Source: an uncultured Candidatus Saccharibacteria bacterium
Lineage (GTDB): Bacteria > Patescibacteriota > Minisyncoccia > Phycocordibacterales > UBA2135
NCBI GenBank assembly: GCA_964348495.1
Contig: CAYGCZ010000001.1
Coordinates: 7,951-71,950 of the forward strand
Direction: 5' to 3'
Length of the DNA: 64,000 nucleotides
Made by a program: the position numbers and the translations under genes. Below, one piece after another: positions 2,037-55,947 of the stretch. The number at the start of each line of letters is the position of its first letter. The first letter of the stretch is position 1. The notes under the pieces were generated by a model. That model was given only the letters and a program-made list of their open reading frames with translations. It was not told the DNA's origin and did no database searches.

Positions 2037-2064
2037 TTGACAAAAAAATGGATTTGTATATACT
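2037..2064 (+). promoter_or_regulatory. sigma70-like promoter upstream of repeat A and rpoB
   Basis: TTGACA at 2037-2042, a 16-nt spacer, then TATACT at 2059-2064. Confidence 0.4.
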
Positions 2065-2275
2065 TATGGTACATACGTTCGATTGTGTTACGATGGCGTG
2101 TCCAAATTATAAGTGAGGGAGCGCTTCGGGCGGGGCTCGGAGTGCATTAAAAAAAGGAGCGATCAGGCACTATTTCTCTTTTTCCGATACGCGTTACGGG
2201 CAACAATCGAACGATTCTCATGCGCGAGGGTTTTCCCTCGCGCCGCGTCATGTCTATGGCGCGCGTCTCGTTCGT

Positions 2276-2442
2276 AGAGCCTGTTCAAGATCTCGCGGTA
2301 CTCGGTCTGAAAATACAGGTTTTTAGGCGAAACATGAGTCGGAGCACTCGTCGTACTAGTAGTACGACGAGTGCGAGACGAAATTTTGTAGCCAAAAACC
2401 TCGTAGTTTCAGGCTGGGGGAAGATCTTGAACATGCTCTTAG
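2276..2442. repeat. Repeat family A copy 1: ~167-bp element with 17-bp terminal inverted repeats and an internal palindrome (MITE-like or structured ncRNA)
   Basis: About 90% identical to 18756..18922. The ends gagcctgttcaagatct and agatcttgaaca(t/g)gctc are inverted. Internal near-palindrome actcgtcgtactagtagtacgacgagt, plus aggtttttaggc ... gccaaaaacct. Confidence 0.85.
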
Positions 2443-2503: not shown

Positions 2504-5500
2504 ATGAAAAAGAAATATTTTAAACGCTATCGGGATCCGCGCATCGGCATTCCCAACTTGGTGGAGGCGCAACTTGAGTCCTACCAAGAGCTTCAGAAGA
2601 GCGGGATCAGCTCTCTCTTGAAAGAGTTCTCTCCGATCAGAGACTATTCCGAGAAGAAGTTCGACATGGAGTTCACCAAGTTTGAGCTCGGTGAGGCAAA
2701 GCGTGACGAATTCTACGCCAAGGATCACAAGCTGACCTACGAAGCCCCGCTTCGCGTAACGGTCAAGCTCAAAAACAAGACTCTCGGCACCGAGAACGAG
2801 CAAGAGATCTTTCTTGCTGATTTTCCGTTGATGACGGATCACGGCACCTTTATCATCAATGGCAACGAGCGCGTCATCGTCTCACAGCTCGTCCGTTCGT
2901 TCGGCGTCTCTTTTACGAGCATGCCCCTGAAGGGCAAGATCTATTTCGGTGCCAAGATCATCCCTTCGCGCGGCGCGTGGATCGAGTTTGAGTCGGAGCC
3001 GGACGGCTCTATCGCCGTGCGCATCGACAAGAAGCGTAAATTCCCCATCTCCTCACTCTTGCGCATCTTTGCCTCCGAGCAGAATATTTTCCCTAAACAG
3101 GATGGGTCGGTCGATGAAGCTCTTATGGCCGTCTTCGCCGACGACGAGCATGCGACGGCCGCCCTCAAAGCATCGTTTGCCAAGGACACCGCCAAGACCA
3201 CCAACGACTCCTATATTGAAGTATACAAACGCCTCCGCGACGGCACGCTCGCGACCGCCGATCATGCGCGCGACTTCCTCGCGACGCTTTTTAGCGCCGA
3301 GCGCTACGACCTTTCGCGTATCGGCCGCTACCGCTTCACACAGATGTTTGGCGAGGAGCACAAAGCGGGCGACACTGACAAGCTCTCCTTCTACGACATT
3401 ACGGCGGTCGTCTCGCACATCGCAAAGCTCAATAATACGCCCAATGCCGAGGCCGACGACATCGACCACCTCGGCGTACGCCGCGTGCGCTTTGCCGGTG
3501 AGATGCTTCACAACCGCTTGCGGGTGGGTATGACGCGCATCAAGCGCAACGTCCAGGACCGCATGTCGACGGTTGATCCGGAGACGACCCTGCCGATGCA
3601 GCTTTTGAACCCGCGCCCCCTCCAAACATCACTCAAAGAGTTCTTCAACACAAGTTCGCTTTCGCAGTACATGAACCAGAAGAACCCGCTCGACGAGCTT
3701 GAGCACCTGCGGACGCTCTCGGCTCTCGGCCCCGGCGGCCTCACCCGCGAGCGCGCGGGCTTTGAGGTGCGCGACGTGCATCCTTCCCACTACGGCAAGG
3801 TCTGCCCCATCCACACGCCCGAAGGCCAGAGCATCGGCCTCGTCTTGCGCCTCTCCATCTTCGCCCGCATCAACGACTTGGGCATCTTGGAGACGCCCTA
3901 CGCACGCGTCAAGAATGGTGTGATCACGAGCGAGATCATCTACATGGACTCGCTTGCGGAAGAGCGTCACAACATCGCGCATGCCGCGACACCTTCGGAT
4001 GAGAAGGGTAAAATCTCCGTCGACTTCGTCGAGGTCCGCACCAAGGACAAGCGCGGCGAAGTAACCCTTGTACCTGTTGAAGAGGTGGAGTTTATCGACA
4101 TTGCGGCCAATCAGCCCTTCTCGGTGGCGACATCGCTCATTCCCTTCTTGGAGCACGACGACGCGAACCGCGCTCTGATGGGTTCTAACATGCAAAAACA
4201 AGCGGTGCCCTGCATCGTGCCGCATATGCCTCTCGTTGCAACAGGTATGGAGGGACGCGCCGCCGTCGACTCCGGCCGTCTCGTGCTCGCCAAGGAGAGC
4301 GGCGTCGTCGCCGCCATGGACGCTTCGTCCGTTACGGTGAGGAACGACAAGGGCAAGGATATCGAGCACCGCATGGTCAATTTCGCCCGCACCAACGACT
4401 TCTCAGTATTTCACCAGCGTCCGATCGTGGAGATGGGTCAGAAGGTGAAGAAAGGTGAGCCGCTTGCCGATGCCGCCTCGACGGTTGATGGTGAGCTCGC
4501 GCTCGGTCAGAACGTCCTTGTGGCCTTCATGTCATGGGGCGGTTCCAACTACGAGGATGCCATCATCCTTTCGGAACGTCTTGTGCGCGACAGTGTCTTT
4601 TCATCAATCCATCTCGAAGAGATCGAGGTCGCAGTGCGCGATACAAAACTCGGTCCCGAAATGACTACCCCCGATATCCCGAACATCGGCGAGGGCAAGC
4701 TCAAAGACCTCGATGAAAGCGGCATTGTGCGCATCGGTGCCGAGGTCGGCCCCAACGACATTCTCGTGGGCAAGATCACGCCCAAAGGTGAGGCGGAGCT
4801 GACTCCCGAAGAGCGCCTCTTGCGCTCGATCTTCGGCGAGAAGGCGCGCGACGTAAAGGACACCTCAAAGCGTATGGAGCACGGCAAGCGCGGTCGTATC
4901 ATCGGCATCCGCGAGTTCTCGCGCGAGCGCGGCGACAACCTCGAGTCGGGCATCATCAAGCGCATCAACGTGGACATCGCGCAGTTGCGCAACGTCTCGG
5001 TGGGTGACAAGCTCGCCGGACGCCACGGCAACAAGGGTGTCATCTCAAAGAGCCTTCCGATCGAAGAGATGCCCTACACAAAGGAGGGTACTCCGATTGA
5101 CGTCATCTTGACGCCGCTCGGCGTTCCTTCGCGCATGAACTTGGGTCAGATCCTCGAGTTGCACCTCGGTCTTGCGGCCAATACGCTCAAGTACCAAGCC
5201 ATCGTGCCGCCGTTCCTCGGCGCCACGGAGGGCGAGATTCGCGAGGAGCTCAAAGAGGCCGGCTTCAACGAGAACGGCAAGATGACCCTCTACGACGGAC
5301 GCACCGGCGAAAAGTTCGATCAGGATATCGCCGTCGGATACATGTATGTGCTCAAACTGCACCACATGGTCGAGGACAAGATCCACATGCGTTCCATCGG
5401 TCCTTACTCGCTCATTCACCAGCAACCGCTTGGCGGCAAGGCGCAGGGCGGCGGTCAGCGCTTCGGAGAAATGGAGGTCTGGGCACTCGAAGGATACGGC

Positions 5501-5692
5501 GCCGCACATACGTTGCGCGAGATCCTCACCGTCAAATCGGACGACATCACCGGACGTTCCGCAACCTTCGACGCCATCATCAAAAACGAGGCGATGGACG
5601 AGCCGACGATTCCCGAGTCCTTCAAAGTATTGCTTAATAACCTGCGGGCGCTTGCGCTCGATGTCGAGTTGGTAGACAAAAAAACCAACTAA
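2504..5692 (+). CDS. rpoB: DNA-directed RNA polymerase subunit beta
   Basis: 1,062 aa. Hallmark blocks GPGGLTRERAGFEVRDVHPSHYGKVCPIHTPEG, NMQKQAVP and GGQRFGEMEVWALEGYGAA are present. Confidence 0.98.
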   Translation: MKKKYFKRYRDPRIGIPNLVEAQLESYQELQKSGISSLLKEFSPIRDYSEKKFDMEFTKFELGEAKRDEFYAKDHKLTYEAPLRVTVKLKNKTLGTENEQEIFLADFPLMTDHGTFIINGNERVIVSQLVRSFGVSFTSMPLKGKIYFGAKIIPSRGAWIEFESEPDGSIAVRIDKKRKFPISSLLRIFASEQNIFPKQDGSVDEALMAVFADDEHATAALKASFAKDTAKTTNDSYIEVYKRLRDGTLATADHARDFLATLFSAERYDLSRIGRYRFTQMFGEEHKAGDTDKLSFYDITAVVSHIAKLNNTPNAEADDIDHLGVRRVRFAGEMLHNRLRVGMTRIKRNVQDRMSTVDPETTLPMQLLNPRPLQTSLKEFFNTSSLSQYMNQKNPLDELEHLRTLSALGPGGLTRERAGFEVRDVHPSHYGKVCPIHTPEGQSIGLVLRLSIFARINDLGILETPYARVKNGVITSEIIYMDSLAEERHNIAHAATPSDEKGKISVDFVEVRTKDKRGEVTLVPVEEVEFIDIAANQPFSVATSLIPFLEHDDANRALMGSNMQKQAVPCIVPHMPLVATGMEGRAAVDSGRLVLAKESGVVAAMDASSVTVRNDKGKDIEHRMVNFARTNDFSVFHQRPIVEMGQKVKKGEPLADAASTVDGELALGQNVLVAFMSWGGSNYEDAIILSERLVRDSVFSSIHLEEIEVAVRDTKLGPEMTTPDIPNIGEGKLKDLDESGIVRIGAEVGPNDILVGKITPKGEAELTPEERLLRSIFGEKARDVKDTSKRMEHGKRGRIIGIREFSRERGDNLESGIIKRINVDIAQLRNVSVGDKLAGRHGNKGVISKSLPIEEMPYTKEGTPIDVILTPLGVPSRMNLGQILELHLGLAANTLKYQAIVPPFLGATEGEIREELKEAGFNENGKMTLYDGRTGEKFDQDIAVGYMYVLKLHHMVEDKIHMRSIGPYSLIHQQPLGGKAQGGGQRFGEMEVWALEGYGAAHTLREILTVKSDDITGRSATFDAIIKNEAMDEPTIPESFKVLLNNLRALALDVELVDKKTN

Positions 5693-5724: not shown

Positions 5725-9381
<3,657 letters not shown>

Positions 9382-16899: not shown

Positions 16900-17051
16900 C
16901 GCATCTTCCGCCCCCCGCGCCGGCGTTGGTTTCACTACCAACCCGGCGTTTTTGTTTATTTCCAACCACTCAATCACCCACCCATCCATCCATCCACCAA
17001 CATACTTACATACGCACTCACCTACTCACATATTCACATCCGTCACTCCGG

Positions 17052-17085
17052 AACCTAAAATGATGCACGTGCATCATTTTAGGTT
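17052..17085. repeat. perfect 34-bp palindrome aacctaaaatgatgcac|gtgcatcattttaggtt (palindrome family C, copy 1)
   Basis: Exact two-fold symmetry. It is flanked by a CA-rich arm (16962-17040) and a GT-rich arm (17107-17180). Confidence 0.95.
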
Positions 17086-17227: not shown

Positions 17228-17797
17228 ATGAAGATTCGCGATACCGAGATACCCCTTACTCAGATCGTCCTCGCCCTCGCGGCAGTCGGTGGGTTGTTGC
17301 TTATCGTTGCGGTCGTACCCAACGTCTCCCAAATTTTCAAACTCTTCGGCATTGGAAAAAGAAAAAAGAGCTATACTCCCAAGCAGTACAGCCGTGCCGT
17401 CAAATCATTGGAGCGGCAAGGGTATGTTGCCATTCGGCGTACCGGCCGCGACGAGCGGATTCATATTACGCCCGAAGGTCGTATGGCTTTCGAGCTGTAT
17501 AGGGCACGTCATCTCGACACCGCCCGCCCTAAAAAGTGGGATGGCAAATGGCGTGTGATTATTTTTGATATTGATCGAAAGCGGAGTTTTTTACGCAATA
17601 GGCTTCGTAATACGCTACAAGGTGTAGGTTTTGTGTATGTACAACATAGCGTATGGGCGTTTCCCTATCCTTGCGAATGGCTGGTGCAATTGATAAAAGT
17701 TGATTGCGAGGTGGGTACAGAAGTGCTCTTCCTTACCGTTGAAGCACTAGAAGGTGATGAACGACTACGTCAACATTTTCGTTTGCCACATAAATAA
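17228..17797 (+). CDS. PaaX-like protein: N-terminal TM helix, winged-helix domain and C-terminal Cas2-like (PaaX_C-type) domain
   Basis: TM segment IVLALAAVGGLLLIVAVV. wHTH YSRAVKSLERQGYVAIRRTGRDERIHITPEGR. WDGKWRVIIFDIDRKRSFLRNRLRNTLQGVGFVYVQHSVWAFPY resembles the Cas2/PaaX C-terminal core. Confidence 0.55.
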   Translation: MKIRDTEIPLTQIVLALAAVGGLLLIVAVVPNVSQIFKLFGIGKRKKSYTPKQYSRAVKSLERQGYVAIRRTGRDERIHITPEGRMAFELYRARHLDTARPKKWDGKWRVIIFDIDRKRSFLRNRLRNTLQGVGFVYVQHSVWAFPYPCEWLVQLIKVDCEVGTEVLFLTVEALEGDERLRQHFRLPHK

Positions 17798-17841
17798 CAC
17801 AGAACCTAAAATGATGCACGTGCATCATTTTAGGTTCTGTG
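17798..17841. repeat. perfect 44-bp palindrome (family C, copy 2; same core as 17052-17085, extended by cacag/ctgtg)
   Basis: cacagaacctaaaatgatgcac|gtgcatcattttaggttctgtg. It overlaps the stop codon of the PaaX-like gene. Confidence 0.95.
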
Positions 17842-17960: not shown

Positions 17961-18551
17961 TCATGCATGGTGGTGATCTGCCTCCTTTCCTTGGATGGTT
18001 GTGTAGGTTATCCAGAGGGTGAGTAGGATCATATATACCGAAATCCAGAATGATAGATATGCATCCCACTGTGCGCCACCGGCGTATACGATGATAGCCG
18101 AGGCGAGTACAGCAAATGAAATGAGGACATCGCACAGAAGGTGCGCGTTTACGATGGTCTTGAGCGATCCGCCGTGCATGGGATGAATTATAAGGAACTG
18201 TCCGGCATTTCCTCCCAAACCGATCAGTGCGCCCACGCTCATGAGCAGAGGGTCGACGGGTATCGATCCTGCGTCAATGCGGTGCATCGCCTCGGCGTTT
18301 ACACGCAGTGCGCCGTAGGCGAGGAGGAGTATGCCGGCAATCACGACGGCGCGCCGCAGGGATGCTTTGTTGAGGATCATTGCCGCGAAGGCACCTCCCG
18401 TAACGAGTATGTCGGTAGACATATGCCACGCGTCGCCGGCGAGGGCATTGCTGGCGGAGCAATGTACGAGGATCCATTGCATACAAAGCGCAAGAGATCC
18501 AATACCAAGTGCGAAACCATATCTTCGCGCATCGTGCGTATGAGTGTGCAT
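17961..18551 (-). CDS. cation diffusion facilitator (CDF) family transporter, membrane domain only
   Basis: HMSTDILVTGGAFAAMIL and HAEAM...D metal-site motifs, 5-6 TM segments and a His-rich end (DHHHA). At 196 aa it lacks the usual cytoplasmic C-terminal domain. Confidence 0.65.
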   Translation of the reverse strand: MHTHTHDARRYGFALGIGSLALCMQWILVHCSASNALAGDAWHMSTDILVTGGAFAAMILNKASLRRAVVIAGILLLAYGALRVNAEAMHRIDAGSIPVDPLLMSVGALIGLGGNAGQFLIIHPMHGGSLKTIVNAHLLCDVLISFAVLASAIIVYAGGAQWDAYLSFWISVYMILLTLWITYTTIQGKEADHHHA

Positions 18552-18570
18552 GACACACCTCCGTTTGGGT

Positions 18571-18693
18571 TTATTAGCGACGTAGAGCGAGTGAAATGAG
18601 AAAACGAAGCGAAGCGGAGTTTTCTCATTTCCGAGCCGAGGAGCTAATATGGGTTCAATACCTCGGGGCTCTGCCCCGAGGGACTATATTGCA
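18571..18693. repeat. Repeat family B copy 1 (~123 bp)
   Basis: About 85% identical to 55824..55947. It has internal IR atgagaaaac...gttttctcat and a perfect hairpin cctcggggc-tct-gccccgagg. Confidence 0.85.
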
Positions 18694-18755
18694 GTGAAAG
18701 AACTATATGCAGACAACCATATTTTTTTCCTATGCGCAAGACATGTTTGGGGTTA

Positions 18756-18922
18756 AGAGCCTGTTCAAGATCTCGCGGTACCCAACGTGAACATACAGGT
18801 TTTTAGGCGAAACATGAGTCGGAGCACGAGTCGTACTAGTAGTACGACGAGTGTGAGACGAAATTTTGTAGCCAAAAACCTCGTGTTTTCAGGTTGGGGG
18901 AAGATCTTGAACAGGCTCTAAG
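18756..18922. repeat. Repeat family A copy 2 (167 bp, perfect 17-bp TIRs)
   Basis: gagcctgttcaagatct ... agatcttgaacaggctc. Same internal structure as 2276..2442. Confidence 0.85.
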
Positions 18923-18929
18923 AACTATA

Positions 18930-18970
18930 TGAAACGCCCCCCGTTTGCGTAGCAAACGGGGGGCGTTTCA
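18930..18970. terminator. bidirectional intrinsic terminator (19-bp perfect stem)
   Basis: tgaaacgccccccgtttgc-gta-gcaaacggggggcgtttca. It lies immediately 3' of the minus-strand DsbA-like gene. Confidence 0.7.
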
Positions 18971-18981
18971 TATCGTGCGCT

Positions 18982-19746
18982 CTATCGCTTCAGCGCTTCT
19001 TCTATAAAGCGCTTCATGGTTTCGTAGGACTGGGCACCGGCGGGGAGGGGAAGGACGGAGCCGTCTTTGAGAATGATGAAGCCGGTCGGGGTGGCACGGA
19101 CGCCGGCGTCGATGCCGCCTTCGAGCTGTTCTGATATGAGATCGGCGTAACGCTCGCTTGTAAGGCAGGTGTTGAATGCGGTGAGGACGGCGCCTTTAAA
19201 GCCGATATTTTGCGCGATCACGGGAAGTTGGTCGAGCTCCAGGCGGTTGTTGGAGGGAGTAATGGCGAAGATGCCATCTATGTACGACCAGAATGCGTCG
19301 CGGCCGCCGACCTCTGCGGCACACTCTGCGGCGCGGGCCTCAACGCGCGCCTTGGGGTGGATGGTATCAAGCGGGAAGTGGCGGTAGACCCACGCCACCT
19401 TGCCGTCATTGCCGTAGGTCTTGTAGACGTTGAGCATCGTCTCGTGGAAGACCTTGCAGAAGGGGCACTCCAAGTCGGAGTATTCAACGACGGTGAGAGC
19501 GGCCTTCGGGTCGCCGCGGAGATGATCATTGGCCGATAGAGGTGGGAGATTTTGCGCCGTCTCTATGGCTCCCTCGTCGGCGGAGGGTTGCGCTGCGCTG
19601 TGCGGGGATTTGGTGATGAGGATGGCACCGGCGATGATGAGGCCGGCGATGATGATCGCCGTGGGCGTTGTGAGGGTAAACCCTGCGCGCTTGTGAGAAG
19701 TTTCGTGTTCCATATGGTTCCATTGTATCTGAAAGAGGGTTTCCAC
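18982..19746 (-). CDS. DsbA-family thiol:disulfide oxidoreductase, membrane-anchored
   Basis: N-terminal TM segment, CPFC active-site motif, thioredoxin-fold context ...VYRHFPLDTIHP... Confidence 0.8.
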   Translation of the reverse strand: METLFQIQWNHMEHETSHKRAGFTLTTPTAIIIAGLIIAGAILITKSPHSAAQPSADEGAIETAQNLPPLSANDHLRGDPKAALTVVEYSDLECPFCKVFHETMLNVYKTYGNDGKVAWVYRHFPLDTIHPKARVEARAAECAAEVGGRDAFWSYIDGIFAITPSNNRLELDQLPVIAQNIGFKGAVLTAFNTCLTSERYADLISEQLEGGIDAGVRATPTGFIILKDGSVLPLPAGAQSYETMKRFIEEALKR

Positions 19747-25990: not shown

Positions 25991-28900
25991 ATGCAGAAGT
26001 ATACGCTTCGAAGAGGTCAGACGTTGCTGGAGGCGATCATCGCGATTGCGCTTTTCGCTTTGTTGGTGAGTGCGATGGTCTCAATCGGTACGGGTGGATT
26101 TGTCGGTATTGATCGCGGCGGTGATCAGACGGAGGCCGAGTCGCTCGCCCAGGAGGGATTGGAGGCGGTACGCGCCATTCGCGACGACGCATGGCGCCGG
26201 CTCGCCTTCTCCACGAGCTCGGTCGCCGTCTCCGCCGGCGGATGGATCTTCAGCGGGGAGGGGACGACGGAAACGGTCGGCGACTTCACCCGCACCATCT
26301 CTCTGCGCGATGTCTGCCGCGACGGGTCAAACAACCTTACCGCCTGCCCGGGATCCTTTGTTGATCTGCATACCAAAGAGATCGTCGTAACGGTAACCTG
26401 GCAGACCAGTACCGGTATTGTGAACAGTATAGAGCGTTCAATGTACCTCTCCAATTGGCAATCGCGCGATTGGACGCAGACCGATTGGTCGGGCGGCTCC
26501 GGCTTCACGACATGGTCTGATGCTACGCCCACCAGGTACAACCTCAACGACGGCGGCATCGACCATGCGACGGCGGGGCAATTCTCTATCGCGTCCGTTC
26601 CGTCGGGAGGGAGTATCGGCCGATGGATCCCCGGTGGCGGTACATCGGTTACCCATACTTCAGCATCACACTTTAATGCAGGGACGTTCGCGAGTACGAC
26701 AGTATCCGGCAGTGGTAATGCGGCTCTTGTTCAGCTTGCCACGCAAGTCCAATGGTCAACGTTTATCCCCACCTCCGAGAGCGGCGATCCGCGCGGATTG
26801 AACGACCTTGAATTCGGCTCCGACCTCGTCGTCTCCGAGTTCGGCTATGCTGTCGGTAAGAATGGAACCATCATGAAGTGGGATGGTGCATCATGGGGAG
26901 CACAGACGAGCGGCACTACTCAGGAGTTGCACGGCGTTTCTATCATGGACAGCGCGGACGTATGGGCTGTGGGCGATAACGGTACGATCATGCATTGGAA
27001 CGGTTTCAGCTGGTCGAGCGTGCAGTCGGCGTCGGTCAAGAGCCTGCTGGATGTCTTCTTGACTTCGGAGACTGATGGATGGATCGTCGGTGCAGGTGGC
27101 GATATTCAGCGGTGGAATGGCGCCATCTGGACAGCATTTATCTCACCGACGAGCCGCAACATGTACAGCTTGGATTTTGTGACCGTCAACGATGGCTGGT
27201 CCGTCGGTGCCAACGGCGAGATTATGCGCTGGAACGGTACGAGCTGGAGCGTTGTCGTCTCTCCCACGACTCAAGCACTCAACGACGTGCACCTCTACGA
27301 TGCTTCCAACGGATGGGCGGTAGGCAACAATGGCGCGATTCTGCGCTGGAATGGCACCATCTGGACATCGCAGACCGCCCCCGACAATACTGAGCTTTTC
27401 GGTGTCTATGCCGTCTCTGCGACGGAGGCGTGGGCGACGGGCAATAGCGGTACGCTCATTCACACCACTAATAGTGGCGCTACCTGGTCGCTCGTATCGG
27501 TCGCTACGAGCGACCCTCTGCGCGATATTTATATGATCAGTGCCTCCAATGGCCAGTTCGTCGGCGGTTCTCCGACCGTCCCCACCATTTTCCAATACGA
27601 CGGGGTGAATTGGACCGATATTTCAGGCGTCCTCAACAACGACGCCATTTACGACATATCAATGATCAGTTCAAGTGATGGTTGGGCTTCCGGCAACGCA
27701 GGACTCATTCTTCATTGGAATGGCAACGACTGGCTCTCGGTAACATCACCGACCAACAGCGACCTCCAGACTATCGACATGGTCGATGCTTCCAACGGTT
27801 TTGCCGCCGGACAAAATGGCAAGATTGTTCATTACAACGGCTCATCGTGGTCGTTGCAGACCTCGGGGGTGAGCGCAACCCTCTTGGGTTCATCTGCAGT
27901 AAGCGCCTCGACGGCATGGATCGTCGGCAACTCGGGCACGATCCTCAAGACGATAAATAGCGGCTCGACATGGTCTGCTCAGACGAGCCCTGTCGGTTCA
28001 AGTTTGCGGAGCGTCTATGCGGTGGATACCTCCAACGCATGGGCAGTCGGTGCGGCCGGCGTTATCTTGAGTACGAGCAATGGCGGTACGACATGGACAC
28101 AACGGACGAGCGGGACAACAAACACTCTCAACGGTGTGCATTTCGTGGACACATCCAACGGATGGGCGGTAGGTAATAACGGTACAATACGCAAGACCAA
28201 TAATGCCGGCGTTACTTGGACGACCGTAACGAGCGGCACGACCAACGACCTGCTTGCGGTGTACTTTACGAGCATCTCCGACGGTTGGGCAGTCGGTGTC
28301 AACAGCGTTCTTTTGCACTGGAACGGCGTCTCGTGGACGACGGTAACGTCGCCCGTTTCCGAAGATATGCATACGGTCGCGATGGTCAACGGCTCCGATG
28401 TCTGGGCCGCGGGTCAATCATCGGTCTTCATTCACTATGGCTTGTCATATTATCTTTCGGGTACCTTCACCTCCTCCGTTATAGACAGCGGGGATGTCTC
28501 GGCGAGCTGGGACTTCATCAAGTGGACGGAGAATATCAACGCCGGATGGACGGATATCACCGTGGATACGCGGACGGGTAATACCTCCACACCGGATGCT
28601 ACTTGGTCCGCCTTCGTCGGCGGGTATACCGATCCGCTTGGCGATCCGATCATCTCACCCGACAGCCGCTACATCCAATATCGTGTCAGTTTTACTACCA
28701 TTGATAGTCAACAGACATCAACCTTGAGCGACCTCACTATCGACTATAACAACCCCACAACACAAGATCTCTACGGCGTGGAGATGCTCTCGGCATCGTC
28801 GGGCTTCGCGAGTGGCGGCGCACGGACGGTCTTTGAATACGACGGCGTCGCGTGGAGCGAGCAAACGAGCGGCGCGGCGGTCATCATGCGCGATGTTGAT

Positions 28901-29929
28901 TTTGTTACCAGTTCTACGGGATGGGCCGTAGGTGACGGGGGTGTTATTATAAAAACGACCAACGGCGGTTCAAGCTTCAGCACGCAGACGAGCGGTACGG
29001 CGCTCAATTTGAACGGCGTCGCGTTTGTCGACGCAAACAACGGCTGGGCTGTCGGCAATACAGGGGCGATCCGCGCGACAGTAAACGGCGGCAGTACGTG
29101 GTCGGGGCAGACGAGTGGCACGACAGCGAACTTGCAAGACGTTTTCTTTGTCAGTACGACTGAGGGCTGGGCCGTTGGCGCGGCGGGTACGATCTTGCAT
29201 ACGGTAAACGGCGGCAGTACGTGGTCTTCCCAGACGAGCGGCACGACCAATGGATTGAACGACCTCTTTTTTACCGGCAGTACGACCGGATGGACCGTCG
29301 GCAACGGTGGCGTAATACGTCAAACGACCAACGGCGGCTCGACGTGGGTAGCACGCACCTCGCAGACGACCAACAATCTCTACGGTCTCGGCTTCTTCGG
29401 TACCAACAACGGCTGGGCGGTCGGCGCGGCGGGGACGATCATGCGCTATGCCGGTATTGACTGGGCACTCTTCACCTCGCCGGTAACGGTAGATCTCCAA
29501 GATGTATCATTCAGTACGGCGACCGATGGCTGGGGTGTCGGTGCAGGGGGTCTTTTCATTCACTTCACCATCAATGAAGTGGCGACACCCTACCTCACCT
29601 CCGGCGTGCTTACCTCATCGGGCTTTGACATGGGCGATACCCAAGCGGCTGTCAATACGCTCGACTGGGATGAGCTTATTCCCTCGTGTTCGCCCGTGTG
29701 CACCGTGCGCTTTCAGCTCTCCACCGCTCCCGACAGCGGGGGAGTACCCGGGACATTTAGCTCGTGGTACGGAGCGGCCGGTATCAATACCTACTTCACC
29801 CATGCGACGAGTGGGGTAGCGGTGCCGACCTCCCTGCCGACAAACCGCTGGGTGCGCTATCGCACACTCCTCGATAGCGACGGCAGTGCGACGCCGACCG
29901 TCTATGAGATGCGGCTTAATTATCAATGA
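25991..29929 (+). CDS. giant pilin-like protein: prepilin-type N-terminus followed by ~20 Ycf48/BNR-like beta-propeller repeats (putative pilus tip adhesin)
   Basis: RRG|QTLLEAIIAIALFALLV. Repeats of the form TxNGGxTWxxQTSGTTxxLxxVxFVDxxNGWAVGxxGTI are numerous. Confidence 0.75.
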   Translation: MQKYTLRRGQTLLEAIIAIALFALLVSAMVSIGTGGFVGIDRGGDQTEAESLAQEGLEAVRAIRDDAWRRLAFSTSSVAVSAGGWIFSGEGTTETVGDFTRTISLRDVCRDGSNNLTACPGSFVDLHTKEIVVTVTWQTSTGIVNSIERSMYLSNWQSRDWTQTDWSGGSGFTTWSDATPTRYNLNDGGIDHATAGQFSIASVPSGGSIGRWIPGGGTSVTHTSASHFNAGTFASTTVSGSGNAALVQLATQVQWSTFIPTSESGDPRGLNDLEFGSDLVVSEFGYAVGKNGTIMKWDGASWGAQTSGTTQELHGVSIMDSADVWAVGDNGTIMHWNGFSWSSVQSASVKSLLDVFLTSETDGWIVGAGGDIQRWNGAIWTAFISPTSRNMYSLDFVTVNDGWSVGANGEIMRWNGTSWSVVVSPTTQALNDVHLYDASNGWAVGNNGAILRWNGTIWTSQTAPDNTELFGVYAVSATEAWATGNSGTLIHTTNSGATWSLVSVATSDPLRDIYMISASNGQFVGGSPTVPTIFQYDGVNWTDISGVLNNDAIYDISMISSSDGWASGNAGLILHWNGNDWLSVTSPTNSDLQTIDMVDASNGFAAGQNGKIVHYNGSSWSLQTSGVSATLLGSSAVSASTAWIVGNSGTILKTINSGSTWSAQTSPVGSSLRSVYAVDTSNAWAVGAAGVILSTSNGGTTWTQRTSGTTNTLNGVHFVDTSNGWAVGNNGTIRKTNNAGVTWTTVTSGTTNDLLAVYFTSISDGWAVGVNSVLLHWNGVSWTTVTSPVSEDMHTVAMVNGSDVWAAGQSSVFIHYGLSYYLSGTFTSSVIDSGDVSASWDFIKWTENINAGWTDITVDTRTGNTSTPDATWSAFVGGYTDPLGDPIISPDSRYIQYRVSFTTIDSQQTSTLSDLTIDYNNPTTQDLYGVEMLSASSGFASGGARTVFEYDGVAWSEQTSGAAVIMRDVDFVTSSTGWAVGDGGVIIKTTNGGSSFSTQTSGTALNLNGVAFVDANNGWAVGNTGAIRATVNGGSTWSGQTSGTTANLQDVFFVSTTEGWAVGAAGTILHTVNGGSTWSSQTSGTTNGLNDLFFTGSTTGWTVGNGGVIRQTTNGGSTWVARTSQTTNNLYGLGFFGTNNGWAVGAAGTIMRYAGIDWALFTSPVTVDLQDVSFSTATDGWGVGAGGLFIHFTINEVATPYLTSGVLTSSGFDMGDTQAAVNTLDWDELIPSCSPVCTVRFQLSTAPDSGGVPGTFSSWYGAAGINTYFTHATSGVAVPTSLPTNRWVRYRTLLDSDGSATPTVYEMRLNYQ

Positions 29930-41698: not shown

Positions 41699-42553
41699 AT
41701 GCGTGATCGGTATTTTGTGATACATAAGGAAGTGGGCGAGACGCCGCTTATGACGGTGGAGCGTTTGCGCGCGGAACGAGGTATCGCGCCCCACGTTAAA
41801 CTCGCCTACGCCGGCCGGCTTGACCCGATGGCGAGCGGGGCGTTGCTCGTACTTACGGGTGATGAATGCAAGCGGCAAAAGGCCTATCACGGCCTCGACA
41901 AAGAGTACGAGTTTGAAGTCCTGCTTGGCGTTTCATCGGACACGGGCGATGTATTGGGATTGGCAGAATACGATCAGATACAGGAACCTACAATCATGCA
42001 CGTGCATGATTGTAGGTTCCCTTTTTCTTCGCGTATGCTTATGAGTGCGGCGCGTTCGTTTCTTGGCACGCACACCTTTCCCTACCCCGCCTTTTCATCA
42101 AAGACCGTCGGCGGGGTGCAGTTGCACCGGCTTGCGGCGGAGGGGCGGTTGAACAAGGCGGAACTGCCCGTACGAGAGGCGACCGTCTATCGGTTGCGCC
42201 TCATTGGGGTGCATACGATCGGCAAGGACGCTCTGCATGCCGCCATCCTCAAAAAGATTGGTACCCTGCCGCAAGTAACCGATGAAGAAAAAGCATGGGG
42301 CAGGGACTTTCGCCGCGAAGAGATCATCGCGCGATGGCGCGATATCTTCGCGAAGATACCCGATGGCGCCTCGTTTCAGATCGCCCGTTTCTCGTGCATT
42401 TGTTCTTCCGGAACCTACATGCGCACCCTCGCCGAAAAGATCGCCGAGCATCTCTCGACGCGCGGCCTCGCCTTCTCCATCCACCGCACAAAGATCGGCC
42501 GCTACATCCCTGTTCTCAGTAAGTGGGGCGTATGGGTACGTCTCTATTGTTAG
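41699..42553 (+). CDS. truB: tRNA pseudouridine(55) synthase-like protein
   Basis: GRLDPMASG, KRQKAYHGLDKEYEFEVLLGVSSDTGD, CSSGTYMRTLAEKIAEHL. Contains the in-frame palindrome 41983..42020. Confidence 0.8.
   Translation: MRDRYFVIHKEVGETPLMTVERLRAERGIAPHVKLAYAGRLDPMASGALLVLTGDECKRQKAYHGLDKEYEFEVLLGVSSDTGDVLGLAEYDQIQEPTIMHVHDCRFPFSSRMLMSAARSFLGTHTFPYPAFSSKTVGGVQLHRLAAEGRLNKAELPVREATVYRLRLIGVHTIGKDALHAAILKKIGTLPQVTDEEKAWGRDFRREEIIARWRDIFAKIPDGASFQIARFSCICSSGTYMRTLAEKIAEHLSTRGLAFSIHRTKIGRYIPVLSKWGVWVRLYC
41983..42020. repeat. perfect 38-bp palindrome (family C variant) inside the truB coding sequence
   Basis: ggaacctacaatcatgcac|gtgcatgattgtaggttcc. It shares the atgcacgtgcat core and aacct/aggtt ends with 17052 and 17798. 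Confidence 0.9.
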
Positions 42554-42560
42554 TTGGGTT

Positions 42561-42623
42561 ATAGGAACTTTTTTAGGTAACTCGGCAAATCAGATTTGCC
42601 GAGTTACCTAAAAAAGTTCCTAT
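42561..42623. repeat. perfect 63-bp palindrome (30-bp arms, 3-nt centre)
   Basis: ataggaacttttttaggtaactcggcaaat-cag-atttgccgagttacctaaaaaagttcctat. The arms are an exact reverse complement. Confidence 0.95.
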
Positions 42624-42645
42624 ACTTCAATAATCCCCACACACC

Positions 42646-55795: not shown

Positions 55796-55829
55796 GGCCA
55801 CCATCAAGAAGATGGTGGCCTTTTTTATT
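55796..55829 (+). terminator. intrinsic terminator
   Basis: ggccaccatc-aagaa-gatggtggcc followed by ttttttatt. Confidence 0.8.
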
Positions 55830-55947
55830 AGCAGCATAGAGCGAGTGAGATGAGAAAACGAAGCGAAACTGAGTTTTCTCATTTCCGAGCCGAGGAGCTA
55901 CTATAGGTTCACTACCGCGCGGCTCTGCCCCGAGGGACTATATTACA
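55824..55947. repeat. Repeat family B copy 2
   Basis: About 85% identical to 18571..18693. The terminal hairpin is degenerate in this copy. Confidence 0.85.

Follow-up and report, generated by a model that had tools for sequence, protein, structure and literature searches.

Insertion sequences (ISs) of the IS1031 group of the IS5 family measure about 850-1050 bp in the ISfinder tables and, among the small non-coding repeats of bacteria, Correia elements duplicate TA. The IS1031 group inserts at TNA and generates exclusively a 3-bp repeat; its member ISLrh of Lacticaseibacillus rhamnosus is 857 bp long with the 17-bp inverted repeat GAACCTGTCTAGTATCT (PMC12016507), and another member, ISCaa8, is 893 bp long (PMC3196728). 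In the IS427 group, 2-bp repeats are given for 12 of the 13 listed elements and the ORFs are mostly frameshifted (PMC3281130). For hairpin-forming bacterial MITEs, the transcripts are predicted to be very stable stem-loops, and 5' UTR sites have been described at which altered expression is possible (PMC10969869, PMC2649163); QMITE2 has 7-9-bp direct repeats (PMC10969869). Genomes of Patescibacteria (CPR) are small and have few repeats, and we found no description of MITEs in this phylum in the open-access literature.

We analysed a repeat that occurs twice in a stretch of 64,000 nucleotides (the window), which RpoB homologues assign to Patescibacteria/Parcubacteria (Paceibacterota). Exact look-ups with rpoB, rpoC and the CDF protein matched no record, and the identical RpoB came from a homology search. 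We are highly confident that it is a non-autonomous MITE of the IS5/IS1031 type, with 17-bp ends and insertion at TNA, which would be moved in trans by a DDE transposase. The element resembles Correia/CREE (Neisseria), ERIC, RUP and QMITE2 in being small, non-coding, intergenic, bounded by terminal inverted repeats (TIRs) and associated with a target duplication, but those elements have other sequences and other parent transposases, whereas the window element has 3-bp TNA flanks and ends of the IS5/IS1031 lineage. PIF/Harbinger transposases are related to IS5 and produce a 3-bp duplication, TWA (TAA/TTA); the corresponding Tourist-like MITEs are short elements whose TIRs are conserved while their interiors vary, and their transposition requires a second protein that is Myb-like. 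Their likeness to the window element is an analogy only, since their hosts are eukaryotic and their TIR sequence is different.

A first-pass annotation of the window had marked two copies of a 167-bp repeat at 2276-2442 and 18756-18922, and the repeat search finds a two-member family at these places. The repeat is real at the given positions, but the element proper is 162 bp and non-coding, and the surplus bases are similar TNA flanks. Copy 1 (2277-2438) and copy 2 (18757-18918) are both on the plus strand and are identical at 149 of 162 positions (92%). The annotation of perfect 17-bp TIRs holds for both ends of copy 2 (18757-18773, plus; 18902-18918, minus) and for the left end of copy 1 (GAGCCTGTTCAAGATCT, 2277-2293, plus, no mismatch), but the right end of copy 1 (GAGCATGTTCAAGATCT, 2422-2438, minus) has one mismatch. 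Allowing up to 3 mismatches, the window has four matches to GAGCCTGTTCAAGATCT or its reverse complement, where 0.11 would be expected. The suggested check for target-site duplications gave a perfect TAA pair around copy 2 (18754-18756 and 18919-18921), with 3-bp TNA repeats family-wide. Copy 1 has GTA on its left (2274-2276) and TTA, a TNA trinucleotide, on its right (2439-2441); two of the three bases are equal, and the pair is a decayed 3-bp target-site duplication.

No third copy or fragment was detected in the 64-kb window, and no further copy in 7.5 kb of adjacent sequence on L121, a contig of a near-identical strain (ENA ERZ27247830 k141_680302) that is 99.85% identical to the window over 15.7 kb and has copy 1, without any difference, at the corresponding position. 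JGI metagenome contigs gave no match to the interior 20-mer AGGTTTTTAGGCGAAACATG. One reading frame stays open across the element for 54 codons, and its peptide had no homologue among 5.8 billion proteins. A tblastn search with the transposase of the 887-bp IS described below detected no cognate transposase in the window or in L121.

The exact TIR 17-mer was scanned across one genome per GTDB species (596 Gb), giving at least 120 loci. By our own arithmetic about 70 chance matches are expected for an exact 17-mer in 596 Gb, so the raw count is uninformative; the arrangement of the matches, not their number, is decisive. Among the matches listed, about 60 loci have an inverted second TIR (up to 3 mismatches) within 1.2 kb, with at least 65 TIR pairs, and the pairs are of two kinds: short elements, which span 50-270 bp and in many cases 141-175 bp, and an element of 887 bp. 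The hosts of the short elements among these matches are Gammaproteobacteria, Burkholderiales, Clostridia, Flavobacteriales, Coxiellaceae, Chlamydiales and a Saccharibacteria MAG, the last with a 162-bp MITE between TAA and TAA (L052). Perfect 3-bp repeats flank 35 of the 52 distinct short elements among the matches listed, and 34 of these 35 repeats are TNA; the distinct full-length copies listed have a perfect 3-bp TNA duplication in every case (7/7). The interiors of the other short elements resemble the window copies only over about 20 nt at the ends and are therefore lineage-specific, as is usual for MITEs. The 17-mer is a handy probe, with the same ends across many bacterial phyla and wholly different interiors between them.

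The 887-bp element is present in at least 12 copies in one gammaproteobacterial MAG (WLWT01) among the matches listed. It ends with the identical 17-mer on one side and a 16/17 match on the other, and it contains a single ORF of 266-277 aa with matches to DDE_Tnp_1 (PF01609, 7.7e-25) and DUF4096 (7.3e-21) in Pfam and to the NCBIfam model NF033580, 'IS5 family transposase' (234.7 bits, cutoff 110). Plasmid sequences found by blastn carry the generic label 'IS5 family transposase' as well as the names ISStma16 and ISAba37. On a Candidatus Wirthbacteria MAG contig (L105), an exact TIR is followed by a transposase N-terminus, 63% identical to that of the 887-bp element and running off the contig end. 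The MITE-like, possibly mobile element put forward by the first-pass annotation is borne out by this TIR, common to a transposase-bearing IS5-family element and to many short non-coding elements, and by the 3-bp TNA duplication that these carry and that is intact in copy 2.

The ends of the window element and the 3-bp TNA signature fit the IS1031 group of the IS5 family, an assignment that draws on the duplication pattern, the element size and the TIR similarity. The window TIR and the ISLrh TIR share 13 of 17 bases, and both start with GA(G/A)CCTGT; the 887-bp partner is in the size range of the group, has a DDE_Tnp_1/DUF4096 transposase and makes a 3-bp TNA duplication. ISLrh differs from the partner by a -1 frameshift, the partner having a single ORF. 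Two other parents were considered: both IS630/mariner, with TA duplication, and the sister IS427 group, with mostly 2-bp duplication and frameshifted ORFs, were rejected on account of the 3-bp TNA duplication and the single-ORF partner. The window element itself, at 162 bp and without coding capacity, counts as a derivative rather than an IS. Its interior folds back on itself almost perfectly and has no kinship with the interior of the 887-bp IS, in which the inverted repeat spans only about 17-18 bp.

We infer the following route for the window copies. A DDE transposase encoded elsewhere would recognise both 17-bp TIRs (GAGCCTGTTCAAGATCT) and excise or copy the 162-bp element, which would insert at a TNA trinucleotide; repair of the 3-nt staggered cut would duplicate the trinucleotide. 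The element carries no gene itself, and its interior, a near-palindrome specific to the lineage, forms a single long hairpin. An 8% divergence separates the two copies, one base of the duplication and one of the TIRs have decayed in copy 1, and no transposase is encoded nearby, all of which points to old insertions that may be immobile.

Only two copies are seen, 16.5 kb apart and in the same orientation, and they could be read as the product of simple copying, local or segmental, of a palindromic stretch between genes, involving no transposition. The first-pass annotation had named this situation, with two copies only and no homologues, as the one that would speak against its reading. We give this explanation practically no weight. 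In the pairwise alignment the likeness of the copies ends sharply at the TIR ends and TNA flanks, copy 2 has its perfect TAA/TAA, and the same TIR is found on a transposase-bearing IS and on dozens of short TNA-duplicated elements in many phyla; homologues do exist elsewhere, one of them on an unrelated contig (L130, below).

The first-pass annotation had also described a nested palindrome and a second inverted pair (AGGTTTTTAGGC and GCCAAAAACCT), both of which were found. The central palindrome is at 2345-2374 in copy 1, where it forms the tip of the long hairpin, and at 18824-18853 in copy 2. The single long hairpin was recovered by folding, with a fold energy of about -85 kcal/mol and z values of about -10 to -12 against shuffles (-86.7 kcal/mol and z = -10.2 for copy 1; -86.3 kcal/mol and z = -11.9 for copy 2). 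The short elements with the same TIR have a mean fold strength of -0.55 kcal/mol per nt, and the window copies have -0.52. Strong folding is a trait of the family and not an adaptation to a locus, because equally strong hairpins are usual in elements that have the same TIR and unrelated interiors. The difference between the plus-strand fold (-86 kcal/mol) and the minus-strand fold (-71 kcal/mol) was considered as a signal, through G-U pairs, of a plus-strand RNA and rejected: there are only 2-3 G-U pairs per copy, and the two strands of other short elements often differ by 10-30 kcal/mol, with either strand being the more stable.

REP/BIME elements are imperfect palindromes of 20-40 nt, lack TIRs and target duplications, and are associated with RAYT (IS200/IS605-like) transposases. 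The palindromic build of the window element, and the presence of other perfect palindromes in the window (at 17051, 17802, 41984 and 42560), could also suit a palindromic protein-binding site, operator-like or bound by a nucleoid protein, or a REP/BIME element with a RAYT transposase. This reading, of which the binding site had been offered by the first-pass annotation, gained no support and we consider it highly improbable. At 162 bp the element is too long for an operator and far exceeds a REP unit, its TIRs and 3-bp duplications are shared with a DDE IS5-family element and not with an IS200/IS605-type RAYT, and the genes flanking copy 1 and those flanking copy 2 have no functional link.

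A second scan, of metagenome sequence with a 19-mer (TIR plus subterminal bases), gave 13 loci, of which one is a true interior homologue. In the remaining 12 loci the rest of the TIR and the interior are missing, and they look like chance or unrelated matches. The homologue, at 1111-1268 on metagenome contig L130, is 75% identical to the window element over 154 nt, has the TIR variant GTAACTGTTCAAGATCT at both ends and is flanked by TAA and TGA; the contig has no coding similarity to the window. The same contig carries at 7537-7609 a 73-bp relative with the TIRs GAGCCTGTCTAAAGTCT and GAGCCTGTCTGAAGTCT and TAA/TAA flanks, adjoining a terminator hairpin. This relative shows that the family also yields very short derivatives, with TIR variants nearer to that of ISLrh. 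Copy 1, copy 2 and the 73-bp relative hinted at a preference of the family for sites next to hairpins or terminators, but the preference is not family-wide, the 45-nt insertion flanks having a mean of -10.1 kcal/mol against -11.1 kcal/mol for controls taken 200 nt away.

In the alignment of three sequences (the two window copies and the L130 homologue), 94.7% of the pair cells are paired, and the asymmetric internal loops of the window copies are conserved in the homologue. Between the window and L130, 12 of 64 pairs have changed on both sides, where shuffles gave 4.4 +/- 1.6 such pairs and slid controls 0-1. These compensated pairs indicate that the hairpin has been maintained since the window and L130 lineages split. 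Template-switch correction of quasi-palindromes is a known mutational process that can compensate pairs without selection. The upkeep of the hairpin, seen in a comparison of two lineages, could reflect either selection on the fold or template-switch correction.

Copy 1 had been placed by the first-pass annotation between a sigma-70-like promoter and rpoB, and the site (TTGACA-16-TATACT, 2037-2064, plus) does match at 11 of 12 positions, with rpoB (1062 aa, plus) at 2504-5692. A small hairpin, CCGC.TCCG...CGGA.GCGG, with a T-rich run (2444-2480, plus) begins two bases past the TTA flank of the copy. In L122 and L123, relatives with RpoB identities of 79% and 82%, the region upstream of rpoB contains neither a TIR nor an element homologue, and trmD and rpoB are separated by 225 nt in L122 compared with 814 nt in the window. 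These differences are consistent with an insertion in the window lineage, although the intergenic DNA has diverged too far for an exact empty site to be defined. A promoter directed outward from the right end of the element, with TTGAAC as -35, was considered and rejected: by eye there is no convincing -10 at the right spacing in either copy, and the promoter scan reports only the site at 2037-2064.

The rpoB leaders of the three Paceibacterota (window 2037-2100 and 2444-2503; L122 3833-4033; L123 455-862) have a common layout, with a strong sigma-70-like promoter, a CGATTG(A/T)GT(A/T)(G/A)CG box about 20 nt past the -10 and, 25-35 nt ahead of the ATG, a hairpin that leads into a T-rich run; Rfam gave no match to it. 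This layout may represent a conserved leader or attenuator. Because the promoter-like site, the box and the hairpin with T-run are positionally conserved in L122 and L123, copy 1 most likely lies inside the rpoBC leader. Having landed between the promoter-like site and the start codon, it would be transcribed if this promoter is used, and the 5' UTR of the rpoBC mRNA would then carry a hairpin of about -85 kcal/mol. The rpoBC-leader copy could in this way be a natural experiment on how far an essential operon tolerates a very stable 5'-UTR hairpin.

Upstream of this promoter, the window has tandem 21-bp repeats (1755-1859) that encode FEQVDKR heptads within a 99-aa coiled-coil-like ORF (1668-1967); the ORF lies between trmD and the rpoB promoter and is missing from the shorter trmD-rpoB spacer of L122. 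The rpoB leader of L123 folds back on itself at about 653-813, over some 170 nt (-73.6 kcal/mol, z = -10); this structure, a curious further case of a long hairpin in the rpoB leader of a different species, has no sequence kinship to the window MITE and is single-copy in the sequences compared.

A MITE could in principle have taken on the role of a structured RNA, cis-acting or an sRNA, its hairpin being selected, for instance, for RNase III processing or as a determinant of the stability or translation of rpoBC. The position of copy 1 between a positionally conserved promoter-like site and rpoB, the very stable fold (z about -10), the pairing and compensation preserved against the L130 homologue, and the L123 leader's own foldback, unrelated and about 170 nt long, are all in keeping with this reading, and Correia transcripts are cleaved by RNase III (PMC2649163, PMC10969869). 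We nevertheless hold it to be unlikely. Scanned with Rfam covariance models at gathering thresholds, the whole window had 0 matches, and in E-value mode both loci gave chance-level scores only (nrdJ, 19.6 bits against 40.3; PyrG_leader, 25.7 against 65). The element is missing from the L122 rpoB leader, its two copies are oppositely oriented relative to their neighbouring genes, the few G-U pairs leave no strand signal, equally strong hairpins are usual among the unrelated-interior elements with the same TIR, and the compensation comes from two lineages only and could also be produced by template-switch correction.

The structured sRNA listed as one option by the first-pass annotation is disfavoured on the same grounds, namely the Rfam result, the absence from the rpoB leaders of relatives and the orientation of the copies, and annotators should be warned against an sRNA or riboswitch call here, the repeat being explained as a MITE. 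There is perhaps a small chance that selection on the folded RNA or ssDNA keeps the hairpin and that the rpoBC-leader copy now acts as a processing or stability element; if so, the unrelated foldback of L123 would hint at convergence in rpoB leaders.

The preferred reading, a MITE of the IS5/IS1031 type, describes an ordinary class of mobile element in an under-studied phylum, and only the rpoBC-leader position and the compensated hairpin are unusual. The window provides a clean example of such a MITE in Paceibacterota, and MAGs of Saccharibacteria and Wirthbacteria hold relatives, which shows that the IS5/IS1031-type transposon lineage reaches the CPR.

Copy 2 is located, as had been annotated, between a CDF gene (Cation_efflux, 17961-18551, minus) and a DsbA-like gene (Thioredoxin_4/DSBA, 18982-19746, minus). 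A terminator-like hairpin with a 20-bp stem (18929-18971, minus) stands downstream of the DsbA-like gene, 7 nt from the right TAA flank, and copy 2 thus lies between this hairpin and the upstream region of the CDF gene, on the strand opposite to both neighbours. The 12-nt direct repeat AAGAACTATATG occurs at 18698-18709 and 18919-18930, that is, 47 nt upstream of copy 2 and then directly after it, where it overlaps the TAA duplication; a repeat of this length at this spacing is too long for chance.

A second repeat family, of 124 nt, is present at 18570-18693 and 55824-55947 (90% identical). The first of these copies precedes MITE copy 2 by 63 nt and lies 18 nt upstream of the point where the CDF gene starts. 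The 124-nt repeat contains a hairpin, GAAATGAGAAAAC…GTTTTCTCATTTC, and another that is GC-rich, and neither TIRs nor a target duplication are obvious.

The window also contains a perfect 35-36-nt palindrome, GAACCTAAAATGATGCACGTGCATCATTTTAGGTTC, in three places (17051-17085, 17802-17837 and 41984-42020), two of which bracket an ORF for a PaaX_M/MarR-like regulator (17228-17797). This palindrome may serve as an operator or a terminator, or it may be REP-like. Another perfect palindrome, at 42560-42624, is 65 nt long, its 32-nt arms being separated by a single nucleotide. Coding sequence at 26900-29550 contains a long series of diverged repeats, each about 123 bp (41 aa), and these repeats have an NGWAVG-type motif resembling beta-propeller or BNR/YCF48-like repeats.
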